DNA from: a virus
DNA: 64,000 nucleotides
Direction: 5' to 3' (one strand)
IMG/VR virus record: IMGVR_UViG_3300012922_000007
Span: 14,531 to 78,530 of that record
In this document: positions 1,112 to 63,998 of the stretch, in pieces
Layout of the letters: each line of letters starts with the position of its first letter
How positions within the stretch are numbered: position 1 is the stretch's first letter
Translations under genes and position numbers: made by a program
The notes under the pieces: model-generated
Seen by the model: the letters and a program-made list of their open reading frames with translations, nothing else
Databases searched by the model: none
Told to the model about the DNA's origin: nothing

Positions 1112-1551
1112 CGAGTGTTGAAAACAAAGGCATTGCCGTAGGTTGATTGGAGTAATCAACCTCATCGAAAGTGACAGTAAAAACTAGTCTCGAAAATCAA
1201 AACCGCACCCACGTAACTCGTTTGCTTTCAATAGTTTGCCGCTAAGTGTATGATAACACGCGCACACGCATGCAATCGAAGTGCCAACAAAATTTCCATT
1301 TCCCCTTGACACGTTCGCTCTTCCCCTACATTCGCATCATGAGTTCGAGGTCAAACGCGAGGTCATCGTCCAGATCTGGACAACAGCACGTAGAGATGAA
1401 AAATCGTGTAAAATTTTCCCGTTTGTTTTCATGCATTTGCGTCGAAAACGCTCGCATGTCGTTGAAAACATAGGTGTGTAAAAAATACTCGAAAGCGGTA
1501 AAAATTACACGATATGAAAAATGGAAGTCGTTTGTTTTCATGCACTTGCGT
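1112..1551. repeat. cluster of IHF-like sites including a 23-bp direct repeat
   Basis: CGTTTGTTTTCATGCA(T/C)TTGCGT at 1420 and 1529; related CGTTTGCTTTCAATAGTTTG at 1219; inverted TTGAAAACAWAG at 1118 and 1462; resembles IHF consensus WATCAANNNNTTR. Confidence 0.5.
1271..1287 (-). promoter_or_regulatory. sigma54 (-24/-12) promoter, leftward
   Basis: - strand TTGGCAC-TTCGA-TTGCA is an exact match to TGGCAC-N5-TTGCW. Confidence 0.6.
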
Positions 1552-1552
1552 T

Positions 1553-1568
1553 TGGAACGGCACCTGCA
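1553..1568 (+). promoter_or_regulatory. sigma54 (-24/-12) promoter, rightward/early
   Basis: TGGAAC-GGCAC-CTGCA with correct GG-N10-GC spacing, upstream of the first + strand gene. Confidence 0.45.
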
Positions 1569-1747
1569 CTAGCACTTGCGACCGACGGTTACACAGGCAG
1601 TCCCGAACCCGAGAGCTTCTCGGTCGATGAGAGCATAAGTACTCGGCAGTAGCGATAGCATACCGTATACACCCGCTGTCAAACGGTCCTGTTAACCCGA
1701 GGTCAAACGTTAGCTGGCGAGCTATAAACGCACGCGGAGAAAACACA

Positions 1748-2026: not shown

Positions 2027-2101
2027 CACGGGTTTATTGCAAGCCGAATGATGACTGGCAACAGGAACTTTCGGCTTGACAATGCATCCGGAATGTGGAC
2101 A

Positions 2102-2611
2102 ATGCGAGAAATTAAACTAACCCGAGGCTATGTCGCATTGGTCAGCGACGAAGACTATGACCGAATATCAGTGCACAAGTGGTGTGCTAGCGAGTCGTGG
2201 TCAAGAGGCAAGATGCATAACGTATACGCTATCAGAAGTGCGGACGGATATACGCTGCGGATGCACAGGTTTATCCTTGGCGTCGATGAACACAAGGTCG
2301 AGGTCGATCACATTGACGGCAATGGACTTAACAATCAGCGCCACAACTTGCGAACGGGCAGTAGATCAGATAATGCTACGAATATGCCTAAGCGCAAGGA
2401 TGCTAAGTGGTCTGAATTCAAGGGAGTGGTATTACACGTCCAAAGTGGATTGTGGCGATGTGAACTATCCCTTGGCGGAGTTCGGATATATTTGGGCTAC
2501 TATCGTACCGAAATTGAGGCAGCTATGGCCTACGATATAGCGTCGCTGTTATTTCGAGGTGAGTTTGCGAGGTTAAACTTTGCCTCTGGCCCACCACTGC
2601 CAGTAATCTAA
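2102..2611 (+). CDS. HNH endonuclease with AP2 domain
   Basis: IKLTRGYVALV, MHRFIL, VDHIDGNGLNNQRHNLR, YLGYY..EIEAAMAYD..GEFARLNF. Confidence 0.9.
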   Translation: MREIKLTRGYVALVSDEDYDRISVHKWCASESWSRGKMHNVYAIRSADGYTLRMHRFILGVDEHKVEVDHIDGNGLNNQRHNLRTGSRSDNATNMPKRKDAKWSEFKGVVLHVQSGLWRCELSLGGVRIYLGYYRTEIEAAMAYDIASLLFRGEFARLNFASGPPLPVI

Positions 2612-2623
2612 TTCGAGGGCTAT

Positions 2624-2881
2624 ATGACACACTGTATCGAATGCGAGGGCAATTCCGAAGTAGGGCACGAGGCTACTTGCTACTATGCCCAAAACGAGGT
2701 CAATGTCCCTTGTGGGAAATGCGGACAGCATATGGCCGATGGGAGCGTCGTGGTTATGTCTTGGCAGAACACGGCTATTGAGCATGTTAACTGTCCAGAA
2801 CCGGACGGGGAATACGAGGTCAGAACACGGACTGCTAATGTCCAGATTCCGGATACATGTGTGCCCGAGGTCATTCGCTAG
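2624..2881 (+). CDS. small Cys/His-rich hypothetical protein
   Basis: GAGG RBS; CIEC and CGKC motifs. Confidence 0.6.
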   Translation: MTHCIECEGNSEVGHEATCYYAQNEVNVPCGKCGQHMADGSVVVMSWQNTAIEHVNCPEPDGEYEVRTRTANVQIPDTCVPEVIR

Positions 2882-3281
2882 GTCACTATCACGCATATAA
2901 TGCCATGTGTGCGTGAGTAGTAATCTAATGCGAGGTCAAGTCTATGATCGAAGTCAAGACAACAACAACGAATTTACATGTTTTCCTGTCGCTAACTGGA
3001 CACGCCTTCGACCAAACGACGCCAGATTCTGATAGGTCACATGGATTTTACTGGTCTATGCGTTGGCTTGCGCGTCAGGTTATTGGCCAAACTTGGATGG
3101 ACTGGCTTATTACGTAATTTCAATGCGAGGTTAAACCATGAAAGCACTAGCCAAACTCCGAGCCATTGCCCGGCAAAAGCATGATTGCGGGGAAATGACT
3201 TACACTGAACTTCAACTAATCCTGCTCGAACTTGAGAAGCGCAAGCGAGCATTACGAGGCAAGCCTTAGGCGAGGTCAAAA

Positions 3282-3413
3282 ATGAAAGACACGATTGTGT
3301 ACATACTTGTAGCGGGTTTGTTGCTCCCTGTGTATACCATTGCTGCACTTGGTTTATGGGCTCTGGTTATACATGTATACACGGAACTATTTGTTCCGAG
3401 GTCAAAACCATGA
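3282..3413 (+). CDS. small membrane peptide (43 aa)
   Basis: own translation MKDTIVYILVAGLLLPVYTIAALGLWALV...; GAGGT RBS. Confidence 0.55.
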   Translation: MKDTIVYILVAGLLLPVYTIAALGLWALVIHVYTELFVPRSKP

Positions 3414-3580: not shown

Positions 3581-3599
3581 CTCAATACGAGGTCAAAAT

Positions 3600-3731: not shown

Positions 3732-3798
3732 TTACGAGGAGTATGTCCGGATTATGGACCTTGGCATACTCTTGGCAACTAGCCAATTCGAGGTCAAT

Positions 3799-4004: not shown

Positions 4005-4330
4005 TTGGTAGGACGCGAGGTCAATCTCGCGTAAGCTATTTAGTTTAACGTACTTAGTATAATTCAGCGAGTTGTGAAACGCTGTTGCTGAGGGACTAAG
4101 TAGCTTACGGAAGGTTGTCCAGTTCTGGACAGCTAACCTCGCCCTTGGCTTGGCGCCATCGGCTGATTCTGGCTGCTCAAGTGATTTCGAGGGCCGTTTA
4201 AATGCGATATGGCGAATCGAGGTCACGGAATGGGTTCGAGGCCGGAAACGAGGTCAAACGCCTCGCCTTGGCCTCGGAAACTAGGCTAGCGAACGTTTTA
4301 CAGCACGGTCGGACGTGCGGAAAGCGGGTT
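4005..4330 (+). ncRNA. candidate structured ncRNA
   Basis: no credible ORF; stems 4013-4032, 4030-4044/4095-4109 (15 bp), 4114-4133, 4237-4276. Confidence 0.45.
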
Positions 4331-5533: not shown

Positions 5534-5679
5534 TGTCTGAAACTAAAGAAGTGCTCCTTGCTCGGATATTAGAGCTAGAGAACGCTTTAAAGCCTAAACC
5601 TAAATCCGAGGTCAAACGTAAACCTAGGAAACTAAAGGCTATACCAAATGGCCGCGTGAGTTTCAGATTTCAATTTTGA
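5533..5679 (+). CDS. small basic protein
   Basis: own translation MSETKEVLLARILELENALKPK...; N-terminus resembles that of the 1748 protein. Confidence 0.45.
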   Translation: MSETKEVLLARILELENALKPKPKSEVKRKPRKLKAIPNGRVSFRFQF

Positions 5680-6414: not shown

Positions 6415-6693
6415 ATGAATCGACACGAACAGAAAAAGTACGCCCATTTGATGCATTGGCACGAATGTGGTATATGCGAGAAAATGTCTGCTTGTACGGA
6501 TAGTCCTTGCACACGCCTCGATATCTGTCGAGAATGCGAGGTCAATCCTATGGAACAAGTCCTTGGAAAAGAAAGATGCGAGGTATTTGAACAGGAAATG
6601 TCCAAGGTCAGAGCCTACGAGGTTAATATTAGTAAGTATCTTGACCTCGGAGATTCGTGGCGTGCGAGGGGAATGTCAATTTCACTAGAGTAA
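6415..6693 (+). CDS. Cys-rich hypothetical protein
   Basis: CGIC and CREC motifs. Confidence 0.55.
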   Translation: MNRHEQKKYAHLMHWHECGICEKMSACTDSPCTRLDICRECEVNPMEQVLGKERCEVFEQEMSKVRAYEVNISKYLDLGDSWRARGMSISLE

Positions 6694-8462: not shown

Positions 8463-8565
8463 TAGCGCCTTGCGTCCTACATCCTGAGTCACTTAATATG
8501 CGAGCGGGGCTTGCAGCGTGACGAGTAGGTTCGACTCCTATCAGGGTGTAGGGCGGAGGGCGCTA
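8463..8565 (+). ncRNA. tRNA-like RNA (T-arm plus extended acceptor-like stem)
   Basis: GTAGG-TTCGACT-CCTAT T-arm at 8525-8541; 8463-8486 pairs with 8542-8565; no D-arm or anticodon arm. Confidence 0.55.
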
Positions 8566-8801
8566 TGAAATACGTGGCACTGCTTTGCCTCGTTGCGTTC
8601 GCATTTGCACAAGAAACCGAGAAACAGGCTTATCAGGTATGGGACGCCTCGTGTATTGTATCTATTAGCAAGGGGATTCATACGAGGATGGAAGCTCCAC
8701 TCAGGAGCGGCAAGCCAGATATGTCCGAGGTCAAAATCCTCGGAATTCACGCAGAATACGTGTCCGGATGTGGACATATTGAGATAAGGAAGGAGAAATA
8801 A
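8565..8801 (+). CDS. small secreted protein
   Basis: signal peptide MKYVALLCLVAFAFA; GGAGG RBS. Confidence 0.65.
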   Translation: MKYVALLCLVAFAFAQETEKQAYQVWDASCIVSISKGIHTRMEAPLRSGKPDMSEVKILGIHAEYVSGCGHIEIRKEK

Positions 8802-9074
8802 TGCCAAAGTACGGAAAGAGTAAGAATCCCGGAGCAAGAGAAAGCTGGCTTCGAGCCAAGAAACAGAACCGCCCTCGTCAAGTATGGGTTAATGACCACT
8901 GGGAGAAAGTATACTTTTGGCCTTGTTCCTACTAAGCAATACATGCTGGCTCTGCGCTTATTTAGATCAGAGAGCGGATCTCGATTATCAATACGAGGTC
9001 AACCAAAAGCTAGAAAATAACCTCGATATTTGCAATACGGAGTTAAATCAGGCACAGCATAGGAGCGAGTTCGA

Positions 9075-9509
9075 ATGATTATTTACCTCGTATCAACAGG
9101 AGATTACAGCGACTATCATGTAGTCGGTGCCTTTTCTACGAAAGAAAAGGCTTTAGAAGCCTTTCCATCAAAGGATTATGGGATAGAGGAATACGAGCTT
9201 GACAAGCCAACCGTTGTATTGAAACGAGTTTACTCGGATGTAATCGCTATTAGTGACGGTTCTAGATGGATTGGCTCTACTCCAGATCACGACGGAACAA
9301 CACATTTTGCCTCGAAATTGGACGAGGTTGATATAGGATTTAGAGGGAAATATGACTTTTTGCAATGGGACTGGCCCAAAAGTCATGGAACTAGCCACGT
9401 TTATGCCAAATCAGTGATTAGCCAAGAACACGCCACAAAGTTAGCTGCTGAAGGTCGTCAAGCTTTCCTTAGAAATGATAAGGCTTTATCGCACAATGTA
9501 GAGATTTAG
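9075..9509 (+). CDS. conserved phage hypothetical protein
   Basis: N-terminal IYLVSTGDYSDYHVVGAFSTKEKA..IEEYELD motif recalled from phage proteins. Confidence 0.7.
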   Translation: MIIYLVSTGDYSDYHVVGAFSTKEKALEAFPSKDYGIEEYELDKPTVVLKRVYSDVIAISDGSRWIGSTPDHDGTTHFASKLDEVDIGFRGKYDFLQWDWPKSHGTSHVYAKSVISQEHATKLAAEGRQAFLRNDKALSHNVEI

Positions 9510-9843: not shown

Positions 9844-10109
9844 AGGATTTACGAAATAAGTGTAAGAAGTTATACAGGTCCTGGTCCTGGTCCTGGTCCG
9901 GGTCCTGGTCCTGGTCCAGGTCCGGGTCCTGGTCCAGGTCCGGGTCCAGGTCCGGGTCCGGGTCCAGGTCCTGGTCCGGGTCCTGGTCCGGGTCCAGGTC
10001 CGGGTCCGGGTCCTGGTCCGGGTCCGGGTCCAGGTCCTGGTCCGGGTCCTGGTCCGGGTCCAGGTCCGGGTCCTGGTCCGGGTCCGGGTCCGGGTCCGGG
10101 TCCTATTAA
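9840..10109 (+). CDS. Ser-(Trp/Gly/Arg) dipeptide-repeat protein
   Basis: ATGA-coupled to the Sm-like gene; 13-aa basic leader followed by (S-W/G/R) repeats. Confidence 0.5.
   Translation: MKDLRNKCKKLYRSWSWSWSGSWSWSRSGSWSRSGSRSGSGSRSWSGSWSGSRSGSGSWSGSGSRSWSGSWSGSRSGSWSGSGSGSGSY
9877..10104 (+). repeat. tandem hexamer array (GGTCCD)38
   Basis: 38 units with invariant GGTCC; the sixth base is T x13, G x18, A x7, never C. Confidence 0.97.
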
Positions 10110-10124
10110 AAAAATCTTCAACAT

Positions 10125-10610: not shown

Positions 10611-10765
10611 ATCAGTGTTTTCAACAATTTGGGAAGCTCTATTCTGTTTTGAGCATGGAATCCTGTCCCCTAAAAATCTTCCGGCTGTCCTCGGACTTTG
10701 CGCCTGTCTCAGATGTACGTTCTATGGGATTAAATCGAAACTTGGTTGGTAACGAGGTCAAAATT

Positions 10766-11895: not shown

Positions 11896-13551
11896 ATGCC
11901 AGCAAATAGGGCTAACTGCGGTTGTGCTTTGACCTCGGGTAACCCAGCTTGTACTGCTTGTATGCGATGTCCCGCGTGCTGCCGCAGCTATGGAGAGTGT
12001 CTTACATGCACTGGTCCATCCTGCGTAGATTCGAGACCAAGGCTTACGTATCGCCGAAGTCCGGATGTATCAGCAGAATTTAGAGCTTGTCAATCTTGTG
12101 GATTTTGTTCTGCGTGTTGTTCTCAGAGGAATAGGTGCCACCGGTGCACAGGGTGTCACAGTAACTACGAAAGAACTCGTATTTGCGCAAATTGTAATAT
12201 GTGTACAAATGGTTGTTGTCAATGTTGGAGTTGCGCGGGATGTCAGGTGAGGAGACCCCGAGGCAATCGCCAATGTCGTCAATGCGCTACTTGTATGCAG
12301 TGCTGTCAGTGTAGAACTTGTGAAAGATGCGAGGATCAGCGACGAGTCATTTGGTGTCCAGATTGCGAATATTGTTCTGGACATTGCAATGATCCGGAAA
12401 ATCATACTGAAAGCTTTGTTGATCTAAGGCCGGAGCATCTTCGACCTAGATCGGCAATTATTGCTTTCCAAAAACGTGCGTTAAAGTTCTGGAACTCTGA
12501 ACCTACGCAGTTCAAGAGAAATCCACTTAAACGCCACATTAGTGTTGAAATCGAGTGCGACAAGGTTAATACGTCCGGAAACGGAAAGAAATTGGCCTCG
12601 GTTCTCAAGAAATGGTCAGACTCTGTAGTGACAGACGGAAGTCTTTCCGGGGACTATGCACACGAGATCAATACCTCACCCTCGAATGGTGATCTATTCG
12701 TTAACCATATCGAACAGATTACTGAAGCCTATAAAGACATAGATGGCAAGTGCTCAGTGAAGTGCGGCCTCCACGTCCATGTAAATTGCCAAGATTTGAA
12801 GTTCTATGATCTTCGCAAGGTCATTTTGCTGTATGCTAGGATTGAACGAGCGTTGTTCGAACTATGCAGGCCAGACCGGGTTAATGCCCAGTATAGCCGT
12901 CTGTGTGGCAAGAACTATGCCAACATGTCTCCAAATCCGGAAGAATTTCGCAGACAGCTGTTCGGGAAGTTCTACTGTGATTCGGAGAAACTTGCAGTTG
13001 CTAGACCAGATAAGAACGTTGGCCTCGCGATTAAGAAGAAGAAAGAGGGCAAATATGCTGGTGTTAGGTATCGTGCTCTCAATCTTCACAGTTACTTTCT
13101 AAGGAAGACTGTGGAATTTCGGCATCATGAAGGGAGTGTTGACCCGGAAGTAATCATTAACTGGGCCGAGGTTTGTGCTTACATAATCGAAGCCGCGAAT
13201 AAGCTATCCGAGGCGCAAATTCGAGCTTTACCAGATACCTCTCGCCAAGCTTTGTCCACAATTCTACCAGAGAATCTGAGAGAATGGTGTGACAAGATTT
13301 GGGAGAAATCTGTTGTAAAATGGGAGGAAGTGGAAATCAGCAACAATAGACCAGATCTTCCCCTCGTTCCAAAGGAGGAAAAACAGTTGGATAGACGAGC
13401 ACTTCGCAAGAAACACAAGGCCGAAAGGAGAGCCAAGGCTAAAATTAATGAGTATAGGCTGATAGCTTTGCGAGCCATTATTTCAGGTCAGAGGTTGACT
13501 CCGCAACCGGTTGCTGCACAGTCCGGAACTGGACAATCAACTCCATTTTGA
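11896..13551 (+). CDS. putative amidoligase (COOH-NH2 ligase) with Cys-rich N-terminus
   Basis: SVEIE, DGSL, EINTSP, CGLHVHV, RYRALNL and TVEFRHH motifs; AGGAGG RBS. Confidence 0.88.
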   Translation: MPANRANCGCALTSGNPACTACMRCPACCRSYGECLTCTGPSCVDSRPRLTYRRSPDVSAEFRACQSCGFCSACCSQRNRCHRCTGCHSNYERTRICANCNMCTNGCCQCWSCAGCQVRRPRGNRQCRQCATCMQCCQCRTCERCEDQRRVIWCPDCEYCSGHCNDPENHTESFVDLRPEHLRPRSAIIAFQKRALKFWNSEPTQFKRNPLKRHISVEIECDKVNTSGNGKKLASVLKKWSDSVVTDGSLSGDYAHEINTSPSNGDLFVNHIEQITEAYKDIDGKCSVKCGLHVHVNCQDLKFYDLRKVILLYARIERALFELCRPDRVNAQYSRLCGKNYANMSPNPEEFRRQLFGKFYCDSEKLAVARPDKNVGLAIKKKKEGKYAGVRYRALNLHSYFLRKTVEFRHHEGSVDPEVIINWAEVCAYIIEAANKLSEAQIRALPDTSRQALSTILPENLREWCDKIWEKSVVKWEEVEISNNRPDLPLVPKEEKQLDRRALRKKHKAERRAKAKINEYRLIALRAIISGQRLTPQPVAAQSGTGQSTPF

Positions 13552-13571
13552 CCTCGTATTTAACTTCAAGC

Positions 13572-13597
13572 CCGGACTTCCCGAAAGCGAGGTCCGG
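13572..13597 (+). other. intergenic hairpin
   Basis: CCGGACTTC/GAGGTCCGG arms. Confidence 0.4.
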
Positions 13598-13617
13598 AGC
13601 GTGCGGTTAGGAGGAAT

Positions 13618-14151
13618 ATGAAAGAAATAGAGTTAACCCAGGGCTACAAAGCTTTGGTGGACGACGAAGACGAAGCCAAGGTAAATCAGTTTACTTGGTG
13701 TGCTATGGTTAGAAATAATAAAGACGGCTCGTTTCGTACAGTCTACGCACAAACATCTCTTGGAGTGGACGAAAAAGGAAAAAGTGTTAGGATATATTTA
13801 CATCGGTTTATACTCGGTATAGTTGATCCTAAAGTTTTAGTGGATCACAAAGACTATAACGGATTAAATTGCCAAAAAGAGAACCTCCGAATTGCAGCTG
13901 ATGGCCAAAATCCATGGAATGCTCGGATTTCAAAAAGCCATAAGACAGAATCTAAATACAAAGGCGTAACGTTGTATAAAAGCCACGGCAGAGTCATAGG
14001 ATACAAGTATAATATATGCAAGAAAGGTGAAAAGTTTTCGGAACGGGGATTTGAAACCGAGGATGAGGCTGGTCGAGCTTACGATAAAAAAGCCAAGGAG
14101 CTTTTTGGAGAGTACGCTTATCTAAACTTTCCGGATGAACAGGAATCTTAA
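13618..14151 (+). CDS. HNH endonuclease with AP2 domain
   Basis: IELTQGYKALVDDED, LHRFIL, VDHKDYNGLNCQKENLR, EAGRAYD..FGEYAYLNF. Confidence 0.9.
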   Translation: MKEIELTQGYKALVDDEDEAKVNQFTWCAMVRNNKDGSFRTVYAQTSLGVDEKGKSVRIYLHRFILGIVDPKVLVDHKDYNGLNCQKENLRIAADGQNPWNARISKSHKTESKYKGVTLYKSHGRVIGYKYNICKKGEKFSERGFETEDEAGRAYDKKAKELFGEYAYLNFPDEQES

Positions 14152-14173
14152 ATTAAACTAACGGAGGATGTAT

Positions 14174-15538
14174 ATGTGCGGTATTTTTTGTGTTGCAAAT
14201 AAAGAGGGTTACGAGCCAAAATTGGATATAGCCATTCCAATTATGGCATTGATAATGGAAGAGAGGGGTAGACACAGTTTTGGCCTCTCTGATGGTGTGG
14301 AAATTATCAAAGACACGGGGCCAATTTCTTCTGGATTGACTGTAAACATGTTTACGGGAAAGAAGGAGCTAATAGCCCACACTAGACACGCCACTCACGG
14401 TTCTCAAACTAAACAAAACGCGCATCCTTTTGAATTCGGAGAAGGAGAAAATAAAATTATTGGTTTGCACAATGGAGTATTAGTTAATCACGATAAGATG
14501 AACGAAGAACACAACAGAAAATTCGAGGTTGATTCTTGTCACATATTTCAGCATATTCTTGAAAACAAACCACTTAAGGACATCCAGGGCTACGGTGCGG
14601 TAGCTTTCTTCCAGCGTGGTAAAATGTATCTTGGTAGATTTAATGGAGGCCAGCTGGCTATTGCAAGAACAAAATTTGGAATAGTTGCGGCTTCGACTCA
14701 AGAAGCTGTTTACAAAGCTTTAAAAATATCCGGCTTGGAATTGGAATGTTTTTATGAGGTTCTGGATGAAAAACTTTATATGGTAGAAGAAGGTCTTTTA
14801 TTTAACACTGACAGAGATTTCCGCTTCGGCTCTCGCTACCAGCCCATAACCAACAACTATCACGGACATTACGAACCCCATGATTGGAGGCAAGGTTCGA
14901 ATTACTATGAAGGAGCACGAGGCCGATGGATCAACAATCACTGGGAAGAGGGTAAATGGATCAACAAAGATACATTTGTCCCAGGAGAATGGAAAACTGG
15001 TAAATTCACTCCGAATGACGAGGGCAAGGCTCAATTATTTCTCCTCGGAGATGGTAAATCTAAGAAGGGAAAGCAGAAGACCAAGAGGGCTGTCGCTGAC
15101 TCAGATGCAGATAACTGCTGTCTATGTCAGTGTTTGTTCTCAGTCGAGGAAGAAACTTGGGACAGTCCCTTCGGTGAGTTATGCGATAGCTGCATGATGA
15201 CTTGTTTTCGGGCTCAAATGGAAGAGGAGACCGAGGTCATTGAACTTGAAGCAACTATCGAGAACTCAGTAGGCGAGGGTATCCATAAACTGGACGATCC
15301 GTTTATTTCTACAACAGTCCGAGACTTTCTAAAGGAGCTAACAGATAAAGAAGCAGCAAGCAATAGATGCAATAAAGAGACAATGCAAGGATCGTGTGAC
15401 GAATGTGCAGTTACAGTTAGCAACGATGATAAGATATTTGTTGATAAAGCCGACGGCCACATAGTAAAATGGATTTTGTGTGTTGGATGTCATCATCAAC
15501 TAACAACTCCATATAACACAGAATTTCCAATCTGTTAA
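14174..15538 (+). CDS. class II (Ntn) glutamine amidotransferase
   Basis: MCGIF N-terminal nucleophile, RGRHSFG, HTRHATHG, NAHPF, HNG, VDS; GGAGG 6 nt before ATG 14174. Confidence 0.9.
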   Translation: MCGIFCVANKEGYEPKLDIAIPIMALIMEERGRHSFGLSDGVEIIKDTGPISSGLTVNMFTGKKELIAHTRHATHGSQTKQNAHPFEFGEGENKIIGLHNGVLVNHDKMNEEHNRKFEVDSCHIFQHILENKPLKDIQGYGAVAFFQRGKMYLGRFNGGQLAIARTKFGIVAASTQEAVYKALKISGLELECFYEVLDEKLYMVEEGLLFNTDRDFRFGSRYQPITNNYHGHYEPHDWRQGSNYYEGARGRWINNHWEEGKWINKDTFVPGEWKTGKFTPNDEGKAQLFLLGDGKSKKGKQKTKRAVADSDADNCCLCQCLFSVEEETWDSPFGELCDSCMMTCFRAQMEEETEVIELEATIENSVGEGIHKLDDPFISTTVRDFLKELTDKEAASNRCNKETMQGSCDECAVTVSNDDKIFVDKADGHIVKWILCVGCHHQLTTPYNTEFPIC

Positions 15539-15569
15539 GTCTTGAATCTGGATATCGAGGTCAAACTCC

Positions 15570-15878
15570 GTGTCCAGAATTGAGGATTTTATGGATAAAC
15601 CTATTGGATTAATGATATACTCCAAAAACGAGGGAAACAAATATTATGTGTTTTGTAGTGTTTGTTCCAAAAATAATAAGATGTACTGGAGTAGCTTAGA
15701 ACCCTTAAAAGGAAGATCGTGGCCAATTTACAGAGAGAATATCGGAGTTTTTGGCCAGAAATGCCATTGGAACGGATGTAGAAATTTTTTAGTAGAAGGT
15801 CATCTTGATTTATTTCCTAATCCGAATGACGAGCACCTCAGTCTAAACTCTCCCTCGGAGATACTAAATGGCGGATAA
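15570..15878 (+). CDS. Zn-binding paralog family protein
   Basis: PIG..YYVFCSVC..WPIYRENIG.FGQKCH. Confidence 0.75.
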   Translation: MSRIEDFMDKPIGLMIYSKNEGNKYYVFCSVCSKNNKMYWSSLEPLKGRSWPIYRENIGVFGQKCHWNGCRNFLVEGHLDLFPNPNDEHLSLNSPSEILNGG

Positions 15879-16149
15879 ACCAATCGGCTACCTCGGATTT
15901 AATCGAAGAAATTGCGATCATCTGTGCTATTGGTGTATAAGATGTTACGAGCATTATAGTATAGCGAGGCGGAGTTATTGGAGTAACAACACGTGGCCGA
16001 TATTCGAGGATCATCTCCAGAAGTTTAGACTTAAATGTCGTCAAGGATGTGGGAATATCCATAATCCGGACGAGCCAGAAGAATTTTTAAATAGTGAACT
16101 TGTTGAAACTCTTGTCCCCGAATTATTCGACGAACCGGAGGAAGACTAA
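15868..16149 (+). CDS. Zn-binding paralog family protein
   Basis: PIGYL..YWCIRC..WPIFEDHL..FRLKC..GC. Confidence 0.75.
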   Translation: MADKPIGYLGFNRRNCDHLCYWCIRCYEHYSIARRSYWSNNTWPIFEDHLQKFRLKCRQGCGNIHNPDEPEEFLNSELVETLVPELFDEPEED

Positions 16150-16538
16150 TGCCTTACGTTCCAGCGGGTAATGCAACAAATAGACAGGCGACCTCGTATG
16201 TCCCTCTAGCACCTAGAGAATGGATTGATGATCCCGAGGGCATTGGATTTATATTGTATTATGCACCGTATAGGAGGTATCACTGGTTTTGTAAGAAATG
16301 TTATTTAACTGATGAAAAATCATGGGATGCGTATAAAAGCGTGGATAGTGACGAGGGAAACGGTTTATTTTGGTCGTATAAGGACCAATTCAAAAATATG
16401 AGGCAAATTTGTGGTGTGGGGTCATGTACGTTTATTTTGGAAGGGATGGGTTTAAATACGTTTCCCAGTGATACTGGAGCTTTACCCTCGCCTACCGAAA
16501 TTTTAGCTCAAATTACGGGGAGAAACAATGTCAGGTAG
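16149..16538 (+). CDS. Zn-binding paralog family protein
   Basis: IGFILYY..WFCKKC..RQIC...C..LPSPTEI. Confidence 0.7.
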   Translation: MPYVPAGNATNRQATSYVPLAPREWIDDPEGIGFILYYAPYRRYHWFCKKCYLTDEKSWDAYKSVDSDEGNGLFWSYKDQFKNMRQICGVGSCTFILEGMGLNTFPSDTGALPSPTEILAQITGRNNVR

Positions 16539-17013
16539 ATCAGTAGTAGATGTTTGGTACCACGGTTGCCGCTACGAGGTTCTACGAGGTCAAGCACCTG
16601 GATGGGGACTAAGAATCTTCTTTAACGTAGAAGATGATGAGGATCTGTGGGTTCTCGACTCCAGTTCATCTGTAAAAACTAAGATTGATCCGATGGGAAC
16701 ATACTATGTCTCGCATTATGAGAGATTTTACTCTATCTCTAAGAAAGTAATAGGTTTCCGCAAGGAAGGTCCGAGGGTAACGCATATCAAGAGCGGGGAT
16801 AAATTCGATAAATACGTAGACCGTCCGACGAAATGGACTCCGAATAACCGAGCAATCCTGAAGGATTTGGATAGATATCGAATCTGGTTGACCTCGCAAC
16901 CTGAATTGGTCGAGGCGGCTCGTAAAGAGTTGAAAAACAAGGTGTTAGGTTGCTGGCATAGTCCGAAGGCCGGATTTGCAGATATTTTGCTGAAAGTGGC
17001 TAACGAGGAATAA
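16528..17013 (+). CDS. DUF4326-like protein (degenerate)
   Basis: C-terminal half KYVDRPTKW..YRIWL..QPELVEAARKELKNKVLGCW.SPK..ADILLKVAN. Confidence 0.65.
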   Translation: MSGRSVVDVWYHGCRYEVLRGQAPGWGLRIFFNVEDDEDLWVLDSSSSVKTKIDPMGTYYVSHYERFYSISKKVIGFRKEGPRVTHIKSGDKFDKYVDRPTKWTPNNRAILKDLDRYRIWLTSQPELVEAARKELKNKVLGCWHSPKAGFADILLKVANEE

Positions 17014-17188
17014 CATGAAAAAGCCAAAGTTTCGTTCTGATCCGTTGACTAAAATTAGAGAACTTCTGGATGAAAATAACCGCCAAAAGGAAGAAATATC
17101 AAGGCTCGAAAACAGAATATTAACCTTGGAAGCTAGAGTTCATATTTCTAATCTTCGAAACGAAATTGACGATATTTAAAGGAATAAT

Positions 17189-17452
17189 ATGCCAGATACT
17201 CCTGTAGGATATCTACTGTGGTGGCCGAGGACAAAGAAATATTACCTGTATTGTACTATATGTGCAAGTGGGCCTCGAAGAGAACGTTGGACTACTGCAC
17301 GAGGACCAAGTTGGCCAATCTATAAAGAACTAGTTGGAAATTATTCACAAAGATGCCACGATTGTGGAAGAATAACTTTTATGGGCGAAGATTTTCTGTT
17401 TCCGGACGAATTTTTGATAGGTTTACCCGGACCTGAGGCCATAAATGCCTGA
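17189..17452 (+). CDS. Zn-binding paralog family protein
   Basis: PVGYLLWW..YYLYCTIC..WPIYKELVGNYSQRCHDC..LPGPE. Confidence 0.8.
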   Translation: MPDTPVGYLLWWPRTKKYYLYCTICASGPRRERWTTARGPSWPIYKELVGNYSQRCHDCGRITFMGEDFLFPDEFLIGLPGPEAINA

Positions 17453-17720
17453 AGAACCAATAGGATATCTGCTCTGGTGGAATCCGCAAAACCGATGGTT
17501 TTATTATTGCCCAGAATGTTCAAAAGTAAATATAAACCATTGGAGACAGCAGGAAGCCAAGTTTTGGCCAGTATACATTGAACATATAGGGAAATATTCT
17601 CAAAAATGTGGGAATTTTCACGAAAATGGTCGTTATAGTTTGTGCGGAGAAGTCTCTACTGTACTATTTGACCAAGAATCACTTTTTACTTTGCCTAGAC
17701 CCGAGGATATTCATGCGTAA
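17445..17720 (+). CDS. Zn-binding paralog family protein
   Basis: PIGYLLWW..FYYCPEC..WPVYIEHIGKYSQKC..LPRPEDI. Confidence 0.8.
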   Translation: MPEEPIGYLLWWNPQNRWFYYCPECSKVNINHWRQQEAKFWPVYIEHIGKYSQKCGNFHENGRYSLCGEVSTVLFDQESLFTLPRPEDIHA

Positions 17721-35193: not shown

Positions 35194-35207
35194 CATTCGA
35201 GGTCAAA

Positions 35208-49051: not shown

Positions 49052-49471
49052 ATGGCAGGGAAGATCGAGGTCGAATCAAAGGCAATTAGCACTAATCCAA
49101 AAGATATTCTTGGTGCTAAAAAGATCTCACTTACTAAGATTCCTAGCACCGCTTTGCTTCATGAAGCGCAGGCTATGATGAACGGGGCAGATAAATATGG
49201 ATCATATAATTGGAGAGCAAAATCGGTACTTGCGAGTATATATGTGGACGCGGCTCTACGGCACCTCTTATCTTGGTTTGAAGGTCAGGAGGTAGCTGAG
49301 GATAGTGGAGTTCATCATCTCGGACACGCTAGAGCTTGTTTGGGAATTTTGCTTGATGCTCTAGAAACAGGAAATCTCGTTGATGATCGTCCAGTTTGTG
49401 GACAACCAGATTCATTCGATAAAACTCAATCTAGACTGGCAGAGATTGTAAAGAAGAAACGAGGTGTATAG
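49052..49471 (+). CDS. dATP/dGTP diphosphohydrolase-domain (DUF5664-like) protein
   Basis: GADKYGSYNWR, YVDAALRHL..W, DSGVHHLGHA. Confidence 0.85.
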   Translation: MAGKIEVESKAISTNPKDILGAKKISLTKIPSTALLHEAQAMMNGADKYGSYNWRAKSVLASIYVDAALRHLLSWFEGQEVAEDSGVHHLGHARACLGILLDALETGNLVDDRPVCGQPDSFDKTQSRLAEIVKKKRGV

Positions 49472-53466: not shown

Positions 53467-55122
53467 CTAAATGGTTGATTCTTCTTCCTCTTTAGGCTTT
53501 ACACCAACAAGAGGACCTGTTATATCTGTAAACTTTTGAAACCCTTTCTTAAGAGTGTCAAGGGTACTTGGTTCGGCGTATGGATCAAATCCGTGCGATA
53601 TCGCTAGAGAAACGGCTTCCTGAGGAGATTGAGCAGATTTGGCAAACTGCGCTTTCTGTTCTTTCGTCATAGGCGTTCCAGATCTAGGAGCTTTAGGCAG
53701 ATTTTTCTGTAATAGCTCTTGTTGCTGACGAACTGCTTTAGCTTTCAGATCACGTTGTTCCTTTTGTTTACTTTGAGCATCACCAACGGCTTTTGCTACA
53801 GTTGGATTGATATTGCTTACTGCTTGGATGAATTCTTGGTTCATAGCAGAACGCTGACCTTGTAGATCAGACACGTCCGCACCAGGGTCTGCTTTCTGAC
53901 GCTCTTTAATTGCATCATCAATACCTTGGACATTCTGTTTATATAGTGTAGCCAGCGCGGTCTGACCATTCTTCTCGGCTATATCCACAGACTTCTGAGC
54001 CAATGCATCCTGTCTAGCAGCTTGGTGTTTTTCCAGATTAAGCTTACCTTGTTCCATGGCTCGTTTCTGAGCATCGTCAGCAAGCTTCATAATATCTGTC
54101 TGAGATAGTTGAACGCTTTCTTCGAGGCCGTCGGTATAGACTTTCGATCCAACTGCTTTATTGACCTCGCCCTTAGTCATCGTGTGCATCTGTGTAAGAC
54201 TGTTAATAGGCTGGTCGATTAGACGAACTGTAGTGAAATCGAGGGGATCGACGGGTTTTCCTGTTTCTTTATCTATCCAGTTTCCGGTATCGTCTACGTG
54301 TGCTGTCGTAGGCATAGATGTGGTGTAAACTGGAACACGCACATGCTGGCTATCTCCTGCAACTGCAAGATTAGGATTCTTCTTTAGCGCAGCTTCCAAT
54401 GTCCTCGCATTAGCCGCTTGACCATTAATATTCTTGCCATCAACTACGATCTGAGCATCTTTGCCACCTGCAGAATAAGCAGCAGCAGCCATAGATTGAT
54501 TTACAGAGTTCACGTGATCAATATTATCTGCAGGCATGTGATGAATTAGATAAAGACTGTGTGCAGTCTGAATGGTCAGCCCCGCAGTAGCCGCAATCGC
54601 ATGTTGGTGCTCATCAGAATACTTCTGCATCTTAGCAGTTTCTTCGGCCTTCTTCTGTCTTAACTGAGTATTCTGAATCTCTTGCTGCCGTTGTTTTTCA
54701 TTCTCATCGAGACCGCGCTGAACTGTCGAAGACGCTCCCTTAGCAAAGCCCTCGCCAAATCCGTGGGCTTGTGTTCCTGCTCCTAGAATTCCGCTAAGCA
54801 GCATTCCTCTAAAGAGTTGACCTGGCTTCTGTTCAACTGGAACTTCTTTAACAGATCCGTCAGGCTGTTCCTGCCATTGAGTCTGAGTTCCCATAACAGC
54901 TTTAACCAGACGACCAACCATGGAATGATGAGCTTCATCAATCTGTTGAGCTTGGTTGGGTTGAATCTGGGATTCCGAGGGCATCGGCAGCATACTGGAT
55001 GTAGGGTCCGGATTCTGGATATTTATTGAAGGAGTTGTAGGAGGCAATAATAGTCCTGGAGCCGGAGTTCCAACACTGGCCTCGGGTTGCAATTGATCTG
55101 GCAAGGGATTAAACTGAGCCAT
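53467..55122 (-). CDS. internal virion/ejection protein
   Basis: Gln/Ala-rich helical protein with a Gly-rich hydrophobic patch; position in the operon. Confidence 0.55.
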   Translation of the reverse strand: MAQFNPLPDQLQPEASVGTPAPGLLLPPTTPSINIQNPDPTSSMLPMPSESQIQPNQAQQIDEAHHSMVGRLVKAVMGTQTQWQEQPDGSVKEVPVEQKPGQLFRGMLLSGILGAGTQAHGFGEGFAKGASSTVQRGLDENEKQRQQEIQNTQLRQKKAEETAKMQKYSDEHQHAIAATAGLTIQTAHSLYLIHHMPADNIDHVNSVNQSMAAAAYSAGGKDAQIVVDGKNINGQAANARTLEAALKKNPNLAVAGDSQHVRVPVYTTSMPTTAHVDDTGNWIDKETGKPVDPLDFTTVRLIDQPINSLTQMHTMTKGEVNKAVGSKVYTDGLEESVQLSQTDIMKLADDAQKRAMEQGKLNLEKHQAARQDALAQKSVDIAEKNGQTALATLYKQNVQGIDDAIKERQKADPGADVSDLQGQRSAMNQEFIQAVSNINPTVAKAVGDAQSKQKEQRDLKAKAVRQQQELLQKNLPKAPRSGTPMTKEQKAQFAKSAQSPQEAVSLAISHGFDPYAEPSTLDTLKKGFQKFTDITGPLVGVKPKEEEESTI

Positions 55123-58896: not shown

Positions 58897-59529
58897 TTAA
58901 GGAATACTTATGTTCAAAGCGACGTTTATTCTTGTAACTGTAGAAACCGAATTTAACGAAAATTGTATTTCGTCACCCGCCACAATTGCAGTTGAACCCC
59001 AACCTGATAAAGAGAGGTCTTCATTTTTCTGAGACGCGGTTAAACTTGGTTTATCACTTCCAGCGATGCTTACAGTCGCAGGAAATCCGGCGTATGACGA
59101 CCTGAGAACATCCACTACACATGAACCACTTACGTCTGCTGTAATTACCCATCCCGTCAAAGTACAGGGAAAAGGAATTGATAATTGACCTTTTGCTCCT
59201 GTTGAGGGAACCGCACCACCGCCGTCGATTGTATAAGAGATTACTGCTGTTCTAGACACTGTAGTTCCTTCCCATACAAAGACTCCGTTAACATCATAAA
59301 CTTTAAGATCGTAGAAAGTACCCGAGGGCGTTAGCTGGTCGCTTGACCATAGATTGAATGCAACCGTCGATCCAGAATTATTAAGTTGACCTCGGACTTT
59401 TAACCCCGCAGTAACCTGAGAACCATCCGAACTTACAGCATCCTCGGACAAAGTTGCGATCACGTATCCATTGGATACAGGAGTTCCGTCCGGATTCTGG
59501 AAAATCATCGAGACGTTTGTAGGGGGCAT
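58897..59529 (-). CDS. tail fibre-like protein
   Basis: shared anchor domain; IDGGGAV.STGAKG..IPFPCT.TGW C-domain. Confidence 0.6.
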   Translation of the reverse strand: MPPTNVSMIFQNPDGTPVSNGYVIATLSEDAVSSDGSQVTAGLKVRGQLNNSGSTVAFNLWSSDQLTPSGTFYDLKVYDVNGVFVWEGTTVSRTAVISYTIDGGGAVPSTGAKGQLSIPFPCTLTGWVITADVSGSCVVDVLRSSYAGFPATVSIAGSDKPSLTASQKNEDLSLSGWGSTAIVAGDEIQFSLNSVSTVTRINVALNISIP

Positions 59530-60793: not shown

Positions 60794-61515
60794 TAGCTAG
60801 CCGTCGGTGTAAAGGTTATCGTTACTACTATTGAACTCGCCGACGCTCCTATATTAGTTACTGTTGTGTAAATTGAACTCGTTTGAGGCGAATCACCATT
60901 TGATCCCGGAACGTCTGGAGAACATATCCAATCCAGTTCACTGGCCTGTAATAGATACCAATCACCGATAATTCCGTTTTCTGTGCCAATTACAACAGCC
61001 TGCGTGAATGGTCTAGAAAGGTCAGCGTTCTGTGTCGCAGCAGTTTTATACAACTCCACTCTCGCGGGGGCGCTAACTGCAACCCGCATACACTGGAACC
61101 CCTTGGCAATCTGGACAATTGTTGGATAAACTTGTCCAACAATTAGAGCCGGAGTTACCAATGCCGTAGTCTGGACCAACGGCGCAGTCGTCGTAGTAGT
61201 CGAAGTTCTTGACGAGGTAACGATATTCGTTACAGATGTTCCACCAGCACCGGAGGCCAACGACGATAGTGTCGGAGGAGACAGCACTCTATACTGAGGA
61301 GCTTGACCACCTCGATAATATTGTCGTAGATTATCCGGACTTACATTAATAGGAGGAGTCGGGCACCTTAGGTTAACATTAGACTTGACGCTATAAATTT
61401 GGTCCGGATTCGTATACGGAGGCGGTGTTAGATCTGTTGCCGGAGATATGGGGTGTTCAATATCAAACTTCGCCGGATCTAGCGGTCGAGTTGCTTCAGC
61501 TAAAGTTGGCATCAC
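60793..61515 (-). CDS. virion/tail protein
   Basis: ARVELY.T..Q.AD.SR motif; position in the operon. Confidence 0.55.
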   Translation of the reverse strand: MMPTLAEATRPLDPAKFDIEHPISPATDLTPPPYTNPDQIYSVKSNVNLRCPTPPINVSPDNLRQYYRGGQAPQYRVLSPPTLSSLASGAGGTSVTNIVTSSRTSTTTTTAPLVQTTALVTPALIVGQVYPTIVQIAKGFQCMRVAVSAPARVELYKTAATQNADLSRPFTQAVVIGTENGIIGDWYLLQASELDWICSPDVPGSNGDSPQTSSIYTTVTNIGASASSIVVTITFTPTAS

Positions 61516-63998
61516 ATCTCCGGAATAAACGTGCCGACCAGCGTATATCCGATGACCTCGTTCCCAAAATTCTCAGCAGGCCAATCAATTCGTACTTGTA
61601 TATGACGACAATATGCGGGAAGCTGGGTCTCAGAGAAATACAACCTCCTGGAATATATAGATCCAGACTGAGGCAAGATTGCAGGATCGGGGCCAGGTCT
61701 AACAAGAGCCTCGAACGTTCCAGCAACTTCATCTATTAGAACAGAGAAAGATGGCAATGTTCCGGTAGCGGTGGCGTCAAATGACAAGAAATTAAGTTCA
61801 GCTACTCGGCTAGACTCCGCCAACATAATCGAACCGATCGTGGCATTCGCGGTATACGAAACACCATTATCTTGCCAAGTCGTTAAATCCCTATTCAAAA
61901 TCTTTCCGGTCGAGGCGGGTCCTAGTAGAAGCTTGTGTATTCCTGGAGCAACTTCTATAGACTGAACTGCTTTGACCCCGCCTACAATAGTGGCAAAAGG
62001 AGCCCAAGTATATCCGGATTCCGGAGCAGGGGTCTGAAGAAGTCTGTACCACCCTGTTGTACCATCGGCCACGTACAGAGCCTTGTCCTGTGAACCAGAC
62101 ACGTGCCACGCTACGTAGACATTCTCGGGGTTCCAGTTGGATTCCTCAAACTTGTTACCGATATTGTTACCAACTTCTGAGAATCCTGCGTTAGGGTCCA
62201 AGGACAAAACTTGTCCGTCCGAGGTAAAGAAATTGATAATGACCCCGTTTACTGCCAGAGCGTTGTAAGATAAGAGTCCAACACCGTCAGCATAAGGAAG
62301 AGGGAACAGCGGTTGCTGAGCCGTTCCGTTTCCGGAAATCAGATAGATATCAGACACGGTGAAGATCATGGCTCCGAGGCTGTTCGGAACAATCCTTGTA
62401 ACCTGAGAAGGGAACGTTGCAGAATTGGTTGGAGGGTTGCCCTCGATTCCATTTCCTATAGGAGCATCGGGTCCATCAGTCCAGAATACTACGTTTCCGA
62501 TGGCATAGAAGATGCGATTGAGATGGAAGGCCAATGCCCTCGCACCAGTCGGCGGAGGAGTATTCTCAAAGGCAATTGGAGCCTGCAGAAGGATATTTAG
62601 TCCGGAATCCGGCGTAGTATCGAAGTATCCGTGTGCCTGATACTGGGCCAATGGAACAGTGTATACCGTGTTGCTTACCCCGGCGCTATTAACGCCGCCA
62701 GCTGGATTGGCTCCTCCGGGGATTAGGAATGGTGTAGAACCTCCGTCCTTAGTCCGGAAGATAGCTATATAATCAACCTGAGGATCGATATTAGCAGGTA
62801 ATCCTCCTGATACTTGAACACCTGCCGCACCTCGGAAATTACCAGTAGCTGTACTGGCAAGACCGGCATTAGATACTGTGTTCGTCAGTGTGTTAACAAG
62901 GGCGAGGTAATATGTCCAGCCACCATTAAGAACGGTTAGTGATCCGGCCTGGGTTGATCCGGCAGGACCATTATTCATCCAGATAAGGTCGGCCCCATCT
63001 GGGGTCGTTCCAAACAACGTTGTCGAAAAAGTCGGGGGTCCTGGAGGTGAAGCTTCAGTCACTCCGGTAGAGAATGGAACCTGTATATTTCCATTGCCAT
63101 CCACGATCTGGTTGGATAGAACATAGACCACGCTATTGGGAATATCCCCGCCAGACGAGGTTCGTTTAAAGTTCTTAACAGGGCCTAGGTTATACCACGT
63201 ATACCGGCCCGAGGTCTCCGTAACGCTGGGATATGTTGGCGGCGTAGCAAATGAACTCGCCGGGAATACCGGTGTCGTGGGCTGGGAAATAGCGGCAGCA
63301 CTGAGAACGTCTTTACCATTGATCTGAACGATCATGGTCTGCTCGCTCAGATGCCCGTTTGCGTAATTGAACTCGAAGGTATATGTTCCGGCACCAGGGA
63401 ACAGAATCTGATAAGTGTCGTTGGGCCAGAACCCTGAGTTGTTCTGTCCACCAATCAAGGTATAGCCATTGACTGCCGTCTTACCGGCTCCGCCAGATGA
63501 CACACCCATATCCTGGAATACTTGGAATCCACTTACATAAGAAACAGAGGTGTTTCCAAATCCGAATACCATGCCGTCGTCGTGGTTAATCCTAAACGAC
63601 AGTGTATAGTTTCCGGATGGGATAATGGGAATTACCAATGATCCGGAAATGGACCATCCGTAGTTAGACGTAGCGGCAGCATCAGGAGTAGTAAACCCTG
63701 TAACCGTGTCGGCCCCGTCAATAGTCGATACCCGCATCGGATTGACGTTTGCATCAATCGAGCCGGTTGACCTCGGATCATTATAATTTAGACTGCCTAC
63801 AGAATACGTAGCGACAGGGGCAGACGGGAAATTATGGTTAAAAGCCCCGTTATTCTGTCCATTAAAGTGTCCAAGCGTTACAGCGGTTGCCCCGCCAGAC
63901 AGAGTTATACCACCAACCGCTAACTGGAATAAGCACAGAACTCCTCCAACGGTGGCAGTTATAAACGCTCCACTGGCGTATGACGTACTTGGAGCCCA
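61512..63998 (-). CDS. tail nozzle/stabilisation-type protein with PA14-like domain (5' partial)
   Basis: the frame stays open from 63737 to the window edge (own translation); FRINHDDG..GTYTFEFNY PA14-like motif; propeller-like C-terminus. Confidence 0.6.
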   Translation of the reverse strand, partial: WAPSTSYASGAFITATVGGVLCLFQLAVGGITLSGGATAVTLGHFNGQNNGAFNHNFPSAPVATYSVGSLNYNDPRSTGSIDANVNPMRVSTIDGADTVTGFTTPDAAATSNYGWSISGSLVIPIIPSGNYTLSFRINHDDGMVFGFGNTSVSYVSGFQVFQDMGVSSGGAGKTAVNGYTLIGGQNNSGFWPNDTYQILFPGAGTYTFEFNYANGHLSEQTMIVQINGKDVLSAAAISQPTTPVFPASSFATPPTYPSVTETSGRYTWYNLGPVKNFKRTSSGGDIPNSVVYVLSNQIVDGNGNIQVPFSTGVTEASPPGPPTFSTTLFGTTPDGADLIWMNNGPAGSTQAGSLTVLNGGWTYYLALVNTLTNTVSNAGLASTATGNFRGAAGVQVSGGLPANIDPQVDYIAIFRTKDGGSTPFLIPGGANPAGGVNSAGVSNTVYTVPLAQYQAHGYFDTTPDSGLNILLQAPIAFENTPPPTGARALAFHLNRIFYAIGNVVFWTDGPDAPIGNGIEGNPPTNSATFPSQVTRIVPNSLGAMIFTVSDIYLISGNGTAQQPLFPLPYADGVGLLSYNALAVNGVIINFFTSDGQVLSLDPNAGFSEVGNNIGNKFEESNWNPENVYVAWHVSGSQDKALYVADGTTGWYRLLQTPAPESGYTWAPFATIVGGVKAVQSIEVAPGIHKLLLGPASTGKILNRDLTTWQDNGVSYTANATIGSIMLAESSRVAELNFLSFDATATGTLPSFSVLIDEVAGTFEALVRPGPDPAILPQSGSIYSRRLYFSETQLPAYCRHIQVRIDWPAENFGNEVIGYTLVGTFIPEM

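Follow-up and report, generated by a model that had tools for sequence, protein, structure and literature searches.

The 64,000-nucleotide stretch analysed here (the window) comprises bases 14531–78530 of a 78,530-base linear IMG/VR virus contig from an uncultured soil phage (IMGVR_UViG_3300012922_000007, hereafter G000), and it is saturated with the 9-mer CGAGGTCAA and its pentamer core CGAGG/CCTCG, both of which are asymmetric and not palindromic. The excess of CGAGGTCAA is ~100-fold over chance. It is firmly established that this excess lies at the level of DNA, that it is independent of strand and codon phase, that a subset of the copies coincides with ribosome-binding sites (RBS) and that relatives of the phage carry a different word. 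Our tentative interpretation is that CGAGGTCAA is a selected duplex-DNA recognition word, read by an orientation-blind factor of the phage lineage; that the reader is a protein, that it is of phage origin and what purpose its reading would serve are points that we infer.

Exact matching returned 45 copies of CGAGGTCAA in the window (29 on the plus strand and 16 on the minus strand), whereas dinucleotide-preserving shuffles of the window averaged 0.50 copies and never exceeded 3; the whole contig contains 50 (30 plus and 20 minus; ~0.64 per kb). All 44 copies listed in a preliminary description of this DNA, made from the sequence alone, proved to have correct coordinates, and one further minus-strand copy was found at 515–523. 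The core, which the same description had called pervasive, occurs 528 times in the contig against 110 expected from base composition and leads all other pentamers in over-representation by far (z=23 when every pentamer was scored without preselection against synonymous shuffles). Extending it base by base gives 191 copies of CGAGGT, 108 of CGAGGTC, 71 of CGAGGTCA and 50 of CGAGGTCAA. Because TCAA directly follows 50 of the 528 cores on their 3′ side, where ~2.5 would be expected from base composition, the 9-mer stands apart as the highest form of the signal and does not simply follow from the core. Almost no information resides in the 25 bases flanking CGAGGTCAA on each side, so the unit is 9 bases long; its 5′ edge is hard, with a C preceding 50 of the 52 occurrences of GAGGTCAA, and positions 1–5 (CGAGG) are near-invariant while positions 6–9 are looser (e.g. 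CGAGGGCAA, 15 copies, and CGAGGTTAA, 14 copies). No preferred spacing or phasing of the cores was detected in the contig, and CGAGG..CCTCG pairs 11–30 nt apart are in 2-fold excess only. Core density is uneven, with 8–15 per kb in many early/replication genes but ~1–5 per kb across most structural genes; recA has 2 per kb. The DNA polymerase gene (23232–25256) and recA (46419–47405) do lack the 9-mer, as had been described, and contain nine and two core pentamers, respectively.

Codon-preserving controls indicate that neither protein sequence nor codon usage generates this pattern. Gene calls based on open reading frames (ORFs) comprised 136 genes (89 % coding), and synonymous codons were shuffled within each gene so that the encoded proteins and the per-gene codon usage were kept. 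Within coding sequences (CDS), CGAGG occurs 248 times in sense (86 expected) and 198 times in antisense orientation (50 expected), and CGAGGTCAA occurs 20 times in sense (1.5 expected, 13-fold) and nine times in antisense orientation (0.6 expected, 15-fold); codon-order shuffles gave lower expectations still. The preliminary description had named loss of the enrichment under such a shuffle as grounds for rejecting it; the enrichment persists, and composition is thereby removed as a cause. Every one of the six codon phases shows an excess of CGAGG (2.1- to 4.8-fold) and, together with the similar sense and antisense enrichment, this shows that the word is maintained at the DNA level.

Ribosome binding explains only part of the distribution, in agreement with the earlier view that RBS use cannot account for the word. 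Fourteen of the 45 window copies lie 1–5 nt before start codons and are placed as Shine–Dalgarno (SD) sites, nearly all of them in the rightward early/middle block. The others are intergenic and sense without a start (5), antisense and intergenic or at a gene boundary (4), intragenic and sense (14) or intragenic and antisense (8; Table 1). In the contig, 29 of the 50 copies fall in CDS and the intergenic ones comprise 17 sense and four antisense copies, the overall surplus on the plus strand being due to intergenic RBS use. CGAGG occupies the SD position of 29 of 135 genes of the contig; the genes that lack it, late structural genes among them, have GGAGG, AGGAG or AAGGA instead, suggesting that the anti-SD sequence of the host is probably ordinary. 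Of the five sense intergenic copies that lack a start, four (1346, 1698, 4249 and 5607) read CGAGGTCAAACG; these may represent a separate subclass in the non-coding early region, e.g. a transcription or RNA signal.

Table 1. Placement of the 45 exact copies of CGAGGTCAA in the window (coordinates are those of the window)
Position	Strand	Placement	Detail
515–523	-	Sense, intragenic	Within minus-strand gene 422–616
1346–1354	+	Intergenic	Divergent non-coding region 820–1747; near-copy CGAGGTCAt 3 nt 3′; no start
1698–1706	+	Intergenic	ATG 1748 is 41 nt on, too distant for SD
2695–2703	+	Sense, intragenic	Within gene 2624–2881
2931–2939	+	SD position	ATG 2944
3271–3279	+	SD position	ATG 3282 (43-amino-acid ORF)
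3397–3405	+	SD position	ATG 3410
3588–3596	+	SD position	ATG 3600 (43-amino-acid ORF)
3789–3797	+	SD position	ATG 3799 (64-amino-acid ORF)
4016–4024	+	Intergenic	No start codon after
4249–4257	+	Intergenic	No credible start; more CGAGG/CCTCG cores on flanks
5607–5615	+	Intergenic	No start codon after
6537–6545	+	SD position	ATG 6550 (47-amino-acid ORF)
6641–6649	-	Intergenic	Antisense to plus-strand block
8726–8734	+	Sense, intragenic	Within gene 8565–8801
8994–9002	+	Sense, intragenic	Within gene 8917–9078
10753–10761	+	SD position	ATG 10766
11929–11937	-	Intergenic	Antisense to plus-strand block
13548–13556	-	Antisense	Across stop of amidoligase gene 12295–13551
15556–15564	+	SD position	GTG 15570 (102-amino-acid ORF)
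16585–16593	+	Sense, intragenic	Within gene 16528–17013
16888–16896	-	Antisense, intragenic	Within gene 16528–17013
17930–17938	+	SD position	ATG 17940
18506–18514	+	SD position	TTG 18519 (ATP-grasp gene)
20074–20082	-	Antisense, intragenic	Within gene 19977–20159
20407–20415	-	Antisense, intragenic	Within gene 20247–20597
21583–21591	-	Antisense, intragenic	Within gene 21450–21614
22115–22123	+	Sense, intragenic	Within ECF sigma factor gene 21607–22182
25787–25795	+	SD position	ATG 25800; within 3′ end of endonuclease VII gene
26312–26320	+	SD position	ATG 26322
27320–27328	+	Sense, intragenic	Within tyrosine recombinase gene 27244–28089
28956–28964	-	Antisense, intragenic	Within gene 28812–28991
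33857–33865	+	Sense, intragenic	Within gene 33606–34196
34026–34034	-	Antisense, intragenic	Within gene 33606–34196
34151–34159	+	Sense, intragenic	Within gene 33606–34196
34569–34577	+	SD position	ATG 34579; within 3′ end of gene 34355–34582
35198–35206	+	SD position	ATG 35208
37428–37436	-	Antisense, intragenic	Within primase-helicase gene 36965–38884
39605–39613	+	Sense, intragenic	Within HNH gene 39596–39967
43479–43487	-	Intergenic	Antisense to plus-strand block
44984–44992	+	Sense, intragenic	Within gene 44877–45581
45057–45065	-	Antisense, intragenic	Within gene 44877–45581
54161–54169	-	Sense, intragenic	Within minus-strand gene 53467–55122
59386–59394	-	Sense, intragenic	Within minus-strand gene 58897–59508
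63767–63775	-	Sense, intragenic	Within minus-strand gene 61512–63998

The family A DNA polymerase (PolA) was used to place the phage among its relatives (among them G001–G005, G315, G316, G318, G320 and G321). The closest cultured phages have a PolA at most 36 % identical, and metagenome proteins reach 75, 64 and 62 % identity (P0002–P0004). A profile search of IMG/VR yielded 80 loci (PolA at most 43 % identical), none of which is enriched for CGAGGTCAA. The preliminary description had proposed looking for the motif in related phages, and the outcome is divided: CGAGGTCAA itself is not enriched there, but three relatives (G001, G002 and G003) are rich in a different word, TCGCCCGAA, with the core GCCCG. 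The best IMG/VR match, G001, is a complete 91,482-base genome with fixed ends and direct terminal repeats, and it has 1094 copies of GCCCG/CGGGC against 216 expected (z=26 in the pentamer scan); the corresponding figures are 365 against 90 for G002 and 129 against 31 for G003. All six codon phases are enriched relative to synonymous shuffles, and the three phages share the flanks T-C-GCCCG-A-A, a 9-base full form whose build resembles the T-n-CGAGG-t-C-A-A of G000. A weak GCCCG excess without flanks is seen in G005 (z=7.8), no enriched word was found in the complete 106.5-kb genome of G004, which served as a negative control, and the stretches of 14 other relatives contain no hyper-abundant word (pentamer z=4–7). 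In the PolA tree, G000, G004, G003 and G001+G002 form separate deep branches in an unresolved polytomy, with G005 elsewhere, so the strong trait is scattered over the tree, and a single word is shared by at least two deep branches.

Copies of GCCCG in G001 are evenly spread over the genome (55–70 per 5 kb) and over the strands (553 plus and 541 minus), and no change of polarity toward the fixed genome ends was found. Across 17 orthologue pairs of G001 and G002 (56 % amino acid and 60 % nucleotide identity), 28 % of GCCCG sites share their aligned position, compared with 12.4 % when all pentamers are counted. Exact matches are over-represented, partners with one mismatch are under-represented and no particular substitution is favoured, a pattern that fits purifying selection on a subset of sites and turnover of the rest. 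The relatives also have abundant longer words of their own. In G001 (L093–L097), GTACGGAAAACG-type words occur ~36 times, and GTTTTCCGTA is also found seven times in G002; GAAAATGGAC occurs 20 times in G004 (L102–L107) and TAGGTCCGCAC 15 times in G005 (L108–L112). These 10–12-mers may be phage-specific promoters or operators.

We also looked for the 9-mer outside this group of phages. The nearest bacterial RecA proteins are those of Acidobacteriota (61–64 % identical), a weak hint at the host. Counts of the 9-mer only, in 301 Acidobacteriota and 201 Bacilli genomes, gave at most ~0.05 copies of CGAGGTCAA per kb compared with 0.64 in the phage, the true host possibly lying outside this sample; the Acidobacteriota set includes three unpublished genomes (G162, G034 and G059), of which the result is independent. 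A scan of IMG/VR for two copies of CGAGGTCAA separated by 200–230 bases returned at least 120 stretches, mostly chance pairs or tandem coding repeats. Among them is IMGVR_UViG_3300031951_000860 (G311; L313–L314), an unrelated 30-kb phage with no protein similarity to G000, in which CGAGGTCA occurs 14 times against 0.8 expected, on both strands. This excess, picked from 2.9 million contigs, is modest relative to shuffles (7 against 1.4 and 7 against 1.8), and the oligonucleotide usage of G311 is strongly biased overall (e.g. CATCG, 224 against 54).

If CGAGGTCAA is indeed a recognition word, it would be the full form of the site, with an invariant CGAGG core and a softer TCAA tail, and selection acting on the DNA itself would keep it in the phage genome. 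Its reader would be a sequence-specific factor acting genome-wide, which recognises single sites in duplex DNA whichever way they point. Such a reader might be a protein of the phage lineage that binds, marks or cuts at the word, which would make it a ‘self’ word. As the word contains GAGG, sense intergenic copies could have been co-opted as the SD sites of ~14 early/middle genes, and RBS use would then represent an economical second use of copies needed in intergenic DNA anyway.

Several points weigh against this reading. The occurrence of one word in distant phages, two of them (G001 and G003) from the same metagenome, would fit a shared host factor equally well, as would the modest CGAGGTCA excess in G311. 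The uneven core density of G000 could reflect the history of its gene modules and not function, and CheckV places the completeness of the contig at 72 %. A gene-content comparison of the word-rich phages (G000–G003) with a near-complete word-poor set (G004, G005, G315, G316, G318, G320 and G321) pinned down no reader. The best-correlated DNA-binding candidate is a small protein in which an HNH endonuclease is joined to an AP2-type DNA-binding domain (HNH-AP2), with two paralogues in the window (2213–2611 and 13618–14151, the latter between the amidoligase and amidotransferase genes). It is encoded by G000 (two copies), G001 (two copies) and G003, is absent from the seven word-poor relatives and was not found in the 40 kb of G002 examined. 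Binding by AP2 domains takes place as monomers, at short asymmetric sites rich in GC, and would suit a word of this kind; the assignment of this one draws on Pfam AP2 matches with E values of 5e-7 to 0.012, all below the gathering score, and on a PDB match to ERF096 (2e-4). Homologues are widespread in IMG/VR phages (>500 matches), and 66 stretches of other phages that encode one show no hyper-abundant pentamer, so HNH-AP2 is not sufficient as a reader; its link with the word probably reflects shared ecology or ancestry, and may reflect homing-endonuclease traffic.

A second gene that follows the word encodes a RecB-family PD-(D/E)XK nuclease (31496–32389; phrog_298), in which the D..D-x-K and Q-x-x-x-Y motifs are readable. 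It is present in 4/4 word-rich genomes and absent from the seven word-poor ones, a search of PDB sequences gave no match, and the link may be one of shared ancestry only. Since the genomes are few and phylogenetically dependent, we treat these gene-content associations as leads, not findings. Six-frame searches of the 78.5 kb (the contig being 72 % complete) returned no DNA methyltransferase match to PF01555, PF00145 or PF02384, although an enzyme encoded by the host is conceivable. CGAGG has been listed as the second commonest N6-methyladenine (6mA) motif in gut phages (PMC10711547), and apart from that listing the literature yielded no mention of CGAGG/CCTCG as a phage word.

An explanation that we consider nearly as likely as a phage-borne reader, if unlikely when taken alone, is that the word is imposed by the host, one of whose systems would favour DNA containing CGAGG(TCAA). 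Candidates are a Chi-like signal recognised by its RecBCD/AddAB, a ‘self’ word used throughout the host genome and a repair process with a bias, the GCCCG phages then infecting another host. The shared T-C-GCCCG-A-A of G001/G002 and G003 across separate deep PolA branches, with G001 and G003 coming from one metagenome, is what such a factor would produce, and the weak, flankless GCCCG excess of G005 on a third branch resembles a state after partial adaptation. The low core density in recA and most structural genes of G000 is reminiscent of the amelioration of acquired modules, and the CGAGGTCA copies of G311 would be explained, although their excess is modest and was selected from a very large set. 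The Chi of Bacillus subtilis is itself a pentamer, and recA is found in all four word-rich phages of known status while 0/6 recA-less relatives are word-rich; two recA-bearing relatives nevertheless lack a word. Chi acts directionally, so the absence of strand or end polarity in G001 argues against a classical Chi mechanism, and the low density of the 9-mer in the 502 bacterial genomes, which may not include the host, counts against a host-wide word.

The remaining explanations appear less probable. It is improbable, though not negligibly so, that two unrelated things are superimposed, the 9-mer being an RNA-level tag of early and middle genes and the pentamer a separate DNA-level bias. Such a tag could act as a ribosome-binding site of a special kind, or an endoribonuclease of the phage could cleave there, in the way T4 RegB acts on GGAG. 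The 14 start-linked copies in the early/middle block, the use of other SD sequences by late genes and the sense excess among intergenic copies are consistent with this idea, and the 9-mer agrees at 6/9 positions with the extended SD consensus, GGAGGTGAT. However, 31/45 copies lie away from starts, five sense intergenic copies have no start, and a reading at the RNA level only fails on the genic antisense enrichment, which is as strong as the sense enrichment. Still more doubtful is a role as primase start sites, in which a T7-type primase-helicase would read the template 5′-CCTCG-3′ (the 3′ G being cryptic) and make pppGAGG, enrichment securing lagging-strand priming on both strands. The phage encodes a gp4-like primase-helicase with a CHC2 zinc finger (36965–38884), both strands are used evenly in G001, and T7 primase sites follow the same logic, comprising 5 nt with one cryptic base and a purine-initiated primer; GCCCG would likewise be readable as pppGCCC. 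Nonetheless, the primase-helicase of G004 is 43–44 % identical and its genome has no enriched word, and a pentamer that occurs by chance about once per kb per strand creates no evident need for a 5-fold excess. T7 offers no precedent for enriched sites, as its three known primase pentamers are only 1.1- to 1.9-fold enriched and none of its pentamers exceeds 2.1-fold. We assign the lowest probability of all, scarcely below that of primase sites, to a neutral by-product of composition or of context-biased mutation or repair that has no reader. The RecB-family nuclease could belong to a repair route of this kind, and turnover between G001 and G002 affects 72 % of GCCCG sites. Against this, composition is removed by the codon-preserving shuffles, the first base of the 9-mer forms a sharp boundary, and GCCCG is retained at aligned positions over twice as often as other pentamers are; this conservation and the missing mutational signature tell against a neutral drive. 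None of the single-substitution neighbours of CGAGG is depleted, as conversion would entail, and the transition neighbours (CAAGG and CGAAG) show mild enrichment, a picture of site decay and not of Vsr-type conversion. Very-short-patch-like conversion was therefore rejected, as near-cognates are undepleted and G001/G002 differences have no substitution signature.

The proposal that CGAGGTCAA is read on DNA thus retains support, while the analogues named for it in the preliminary description (stoperators, Chi, uptake sequences and modification-linked sites) are not borne out in the features tested. Stoperators of cluster A mycobacteriophages (the L5 gp71 sites) are 13 bp long, mostly intergenic and oriented with transcription; like CGAGGTCAA, they have many dispersed asymmetric copies and a word that differs among relatives. 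They are read by a phage protein, whereas no repressor-like reader was found in G000, where 29/50 copies lie in CDS, in all phases and with no polarity once codons are controlled. The start-associated sequences (SAS) of cluster K mycobacteriophages are likewise exact words that include the RBS directly upstream of many starts (14 here), but SAS are start-linked and sense only, whereas two thirds of the G000 copies (31/45) are intragenic, antisense or without a start. Uptake sequences (uptake signal sequences and DNA uptake sequences, USS/DUS) and HIP1 are similar in frequency (~0.6 per kb), in occupying both strands, in entering genes against codon preference and in combining a strict core with softer flanks; they are words of bacterial chromosomes, HIP1 being palindromic, in contrast to the asymmetric phage word, for which the 502 bacterial genomes sampled gave no comparable density (at most ~0.05 per kb). 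Chi and Chi-enriched phages (PMC3784561) offer a short (5–8 nt), asymmetric, G-rich word over-represented in phages, and the word-rich phages here carry recombination genes; Chi is polar and the host's own word, whereas the strand bias of G000 follows SD use only and no host word was seen in the genomes sampled. The nearest printed case is a nick-associated 9-mer, WACTRTGAC, in Pseudomonas phage Rembedalsseter and 60 relatives (TACTRTGMC in phage tf; PMC11780129), which is also a lineage-specific asymmetric 9-mer of related phages, found inside and outside genes. Its copies, ~13 in each genome, are confined to one strand and fall at mapped nicks, whereas G000, known from assembled sequence, has 50 copies on both strands (30 plus and 20 minus) plus a 528-copy pentamer core. 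What is distinctive is an asymmetric, non-polar word present in all reading frames at very high density, with a pentamer core and a 9-mer full form, whose place is taken by another word in related phages and by none in one complete relative.

The phage was detected in two soil metagenome runs, one of which may be its source, the second containing a near-identical sequence at low depth; no RNA data set was listed as containing it. Its genes point leftward from contig base 1 to 15349, rightward from 16278 to 64621 and leftward from there to the end. Putative replication functions comprise the family A DNA polymerase, the T7-gp4-like primase-helicase (domains Zn_ribbon_DnaG, Toprim and DnaB_C) and a single-stranded DNA-binding protein, and those for recombination comprise RecA, RecT and the RecB-family nuclease. 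An ECF sigma factor, a tyrosine recombinase, several HNH nucleases and endonuclease VII are also encoded, as are MazG and a MazZ-like domain for nucleotide metabolism. The last of these (49052–49471) matches the N-terminal domain of dATP/dGTP diphosphohydrolase (PF18909, E value 3e-24), which we take to be the MazZ family of diaminopurine ‘Z-genome’ phages; the separate MazG lies at 35983–36342. Genes for an amidoligase (PF12224), a class-II glutamine amidotransferase and a RimK-like ATP-grasp ligase are clustered at 12295–19331. In phage base-modification systems, enzymes of these three types are predicted makers of hypermodified thymidines or peptide tags. Other repeated words were seen. The palindrome TCCGGA is over-represented: the contig has 83 occurrences, which make 166 when the two strands are counted, where 30 would be expected, and CDS have 77 against 31 after synonymous shuffling; its full form was put at TCCRGAWTCYGGA. 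The list of longer k-mers is headed by GGTCCGGGTCC (18 copies) and GGTCCTGGTCC (12 copies), located at 9870–10124 of the window and in the tail-fibre region, which are taken to come from a collagen-like or hexamer-repeat coding array.

Few iterated words have been described in phages so far (stoperators, start-associated sequences and nick motifs), and for those of bacteria (uptake sequences, Chi and HIP1) the readers and functions took decades to find or are still open. The word-rich group here has one core per 75–150 bases on both strands. It is conceivable, if rather unlikely, that ~100-kb soil phages each maintain a lineage-specific ‘self’ word whose reader has switched specificity between lineages, that they recycle it as an RBS and that it amounts to programmable genome marking, which, if true, would be of a kind not described for viruses. 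The four word-rich and at least seven word-poor genomes form a natural comparative set for finding the reader. Should the reader be a phage protein, it would represent a novel means of DNA self-labelling by a virus; should it belong to a host system, the word would give direct access to the host and to a pathway of defence or repair in uncultured soil bacteria.

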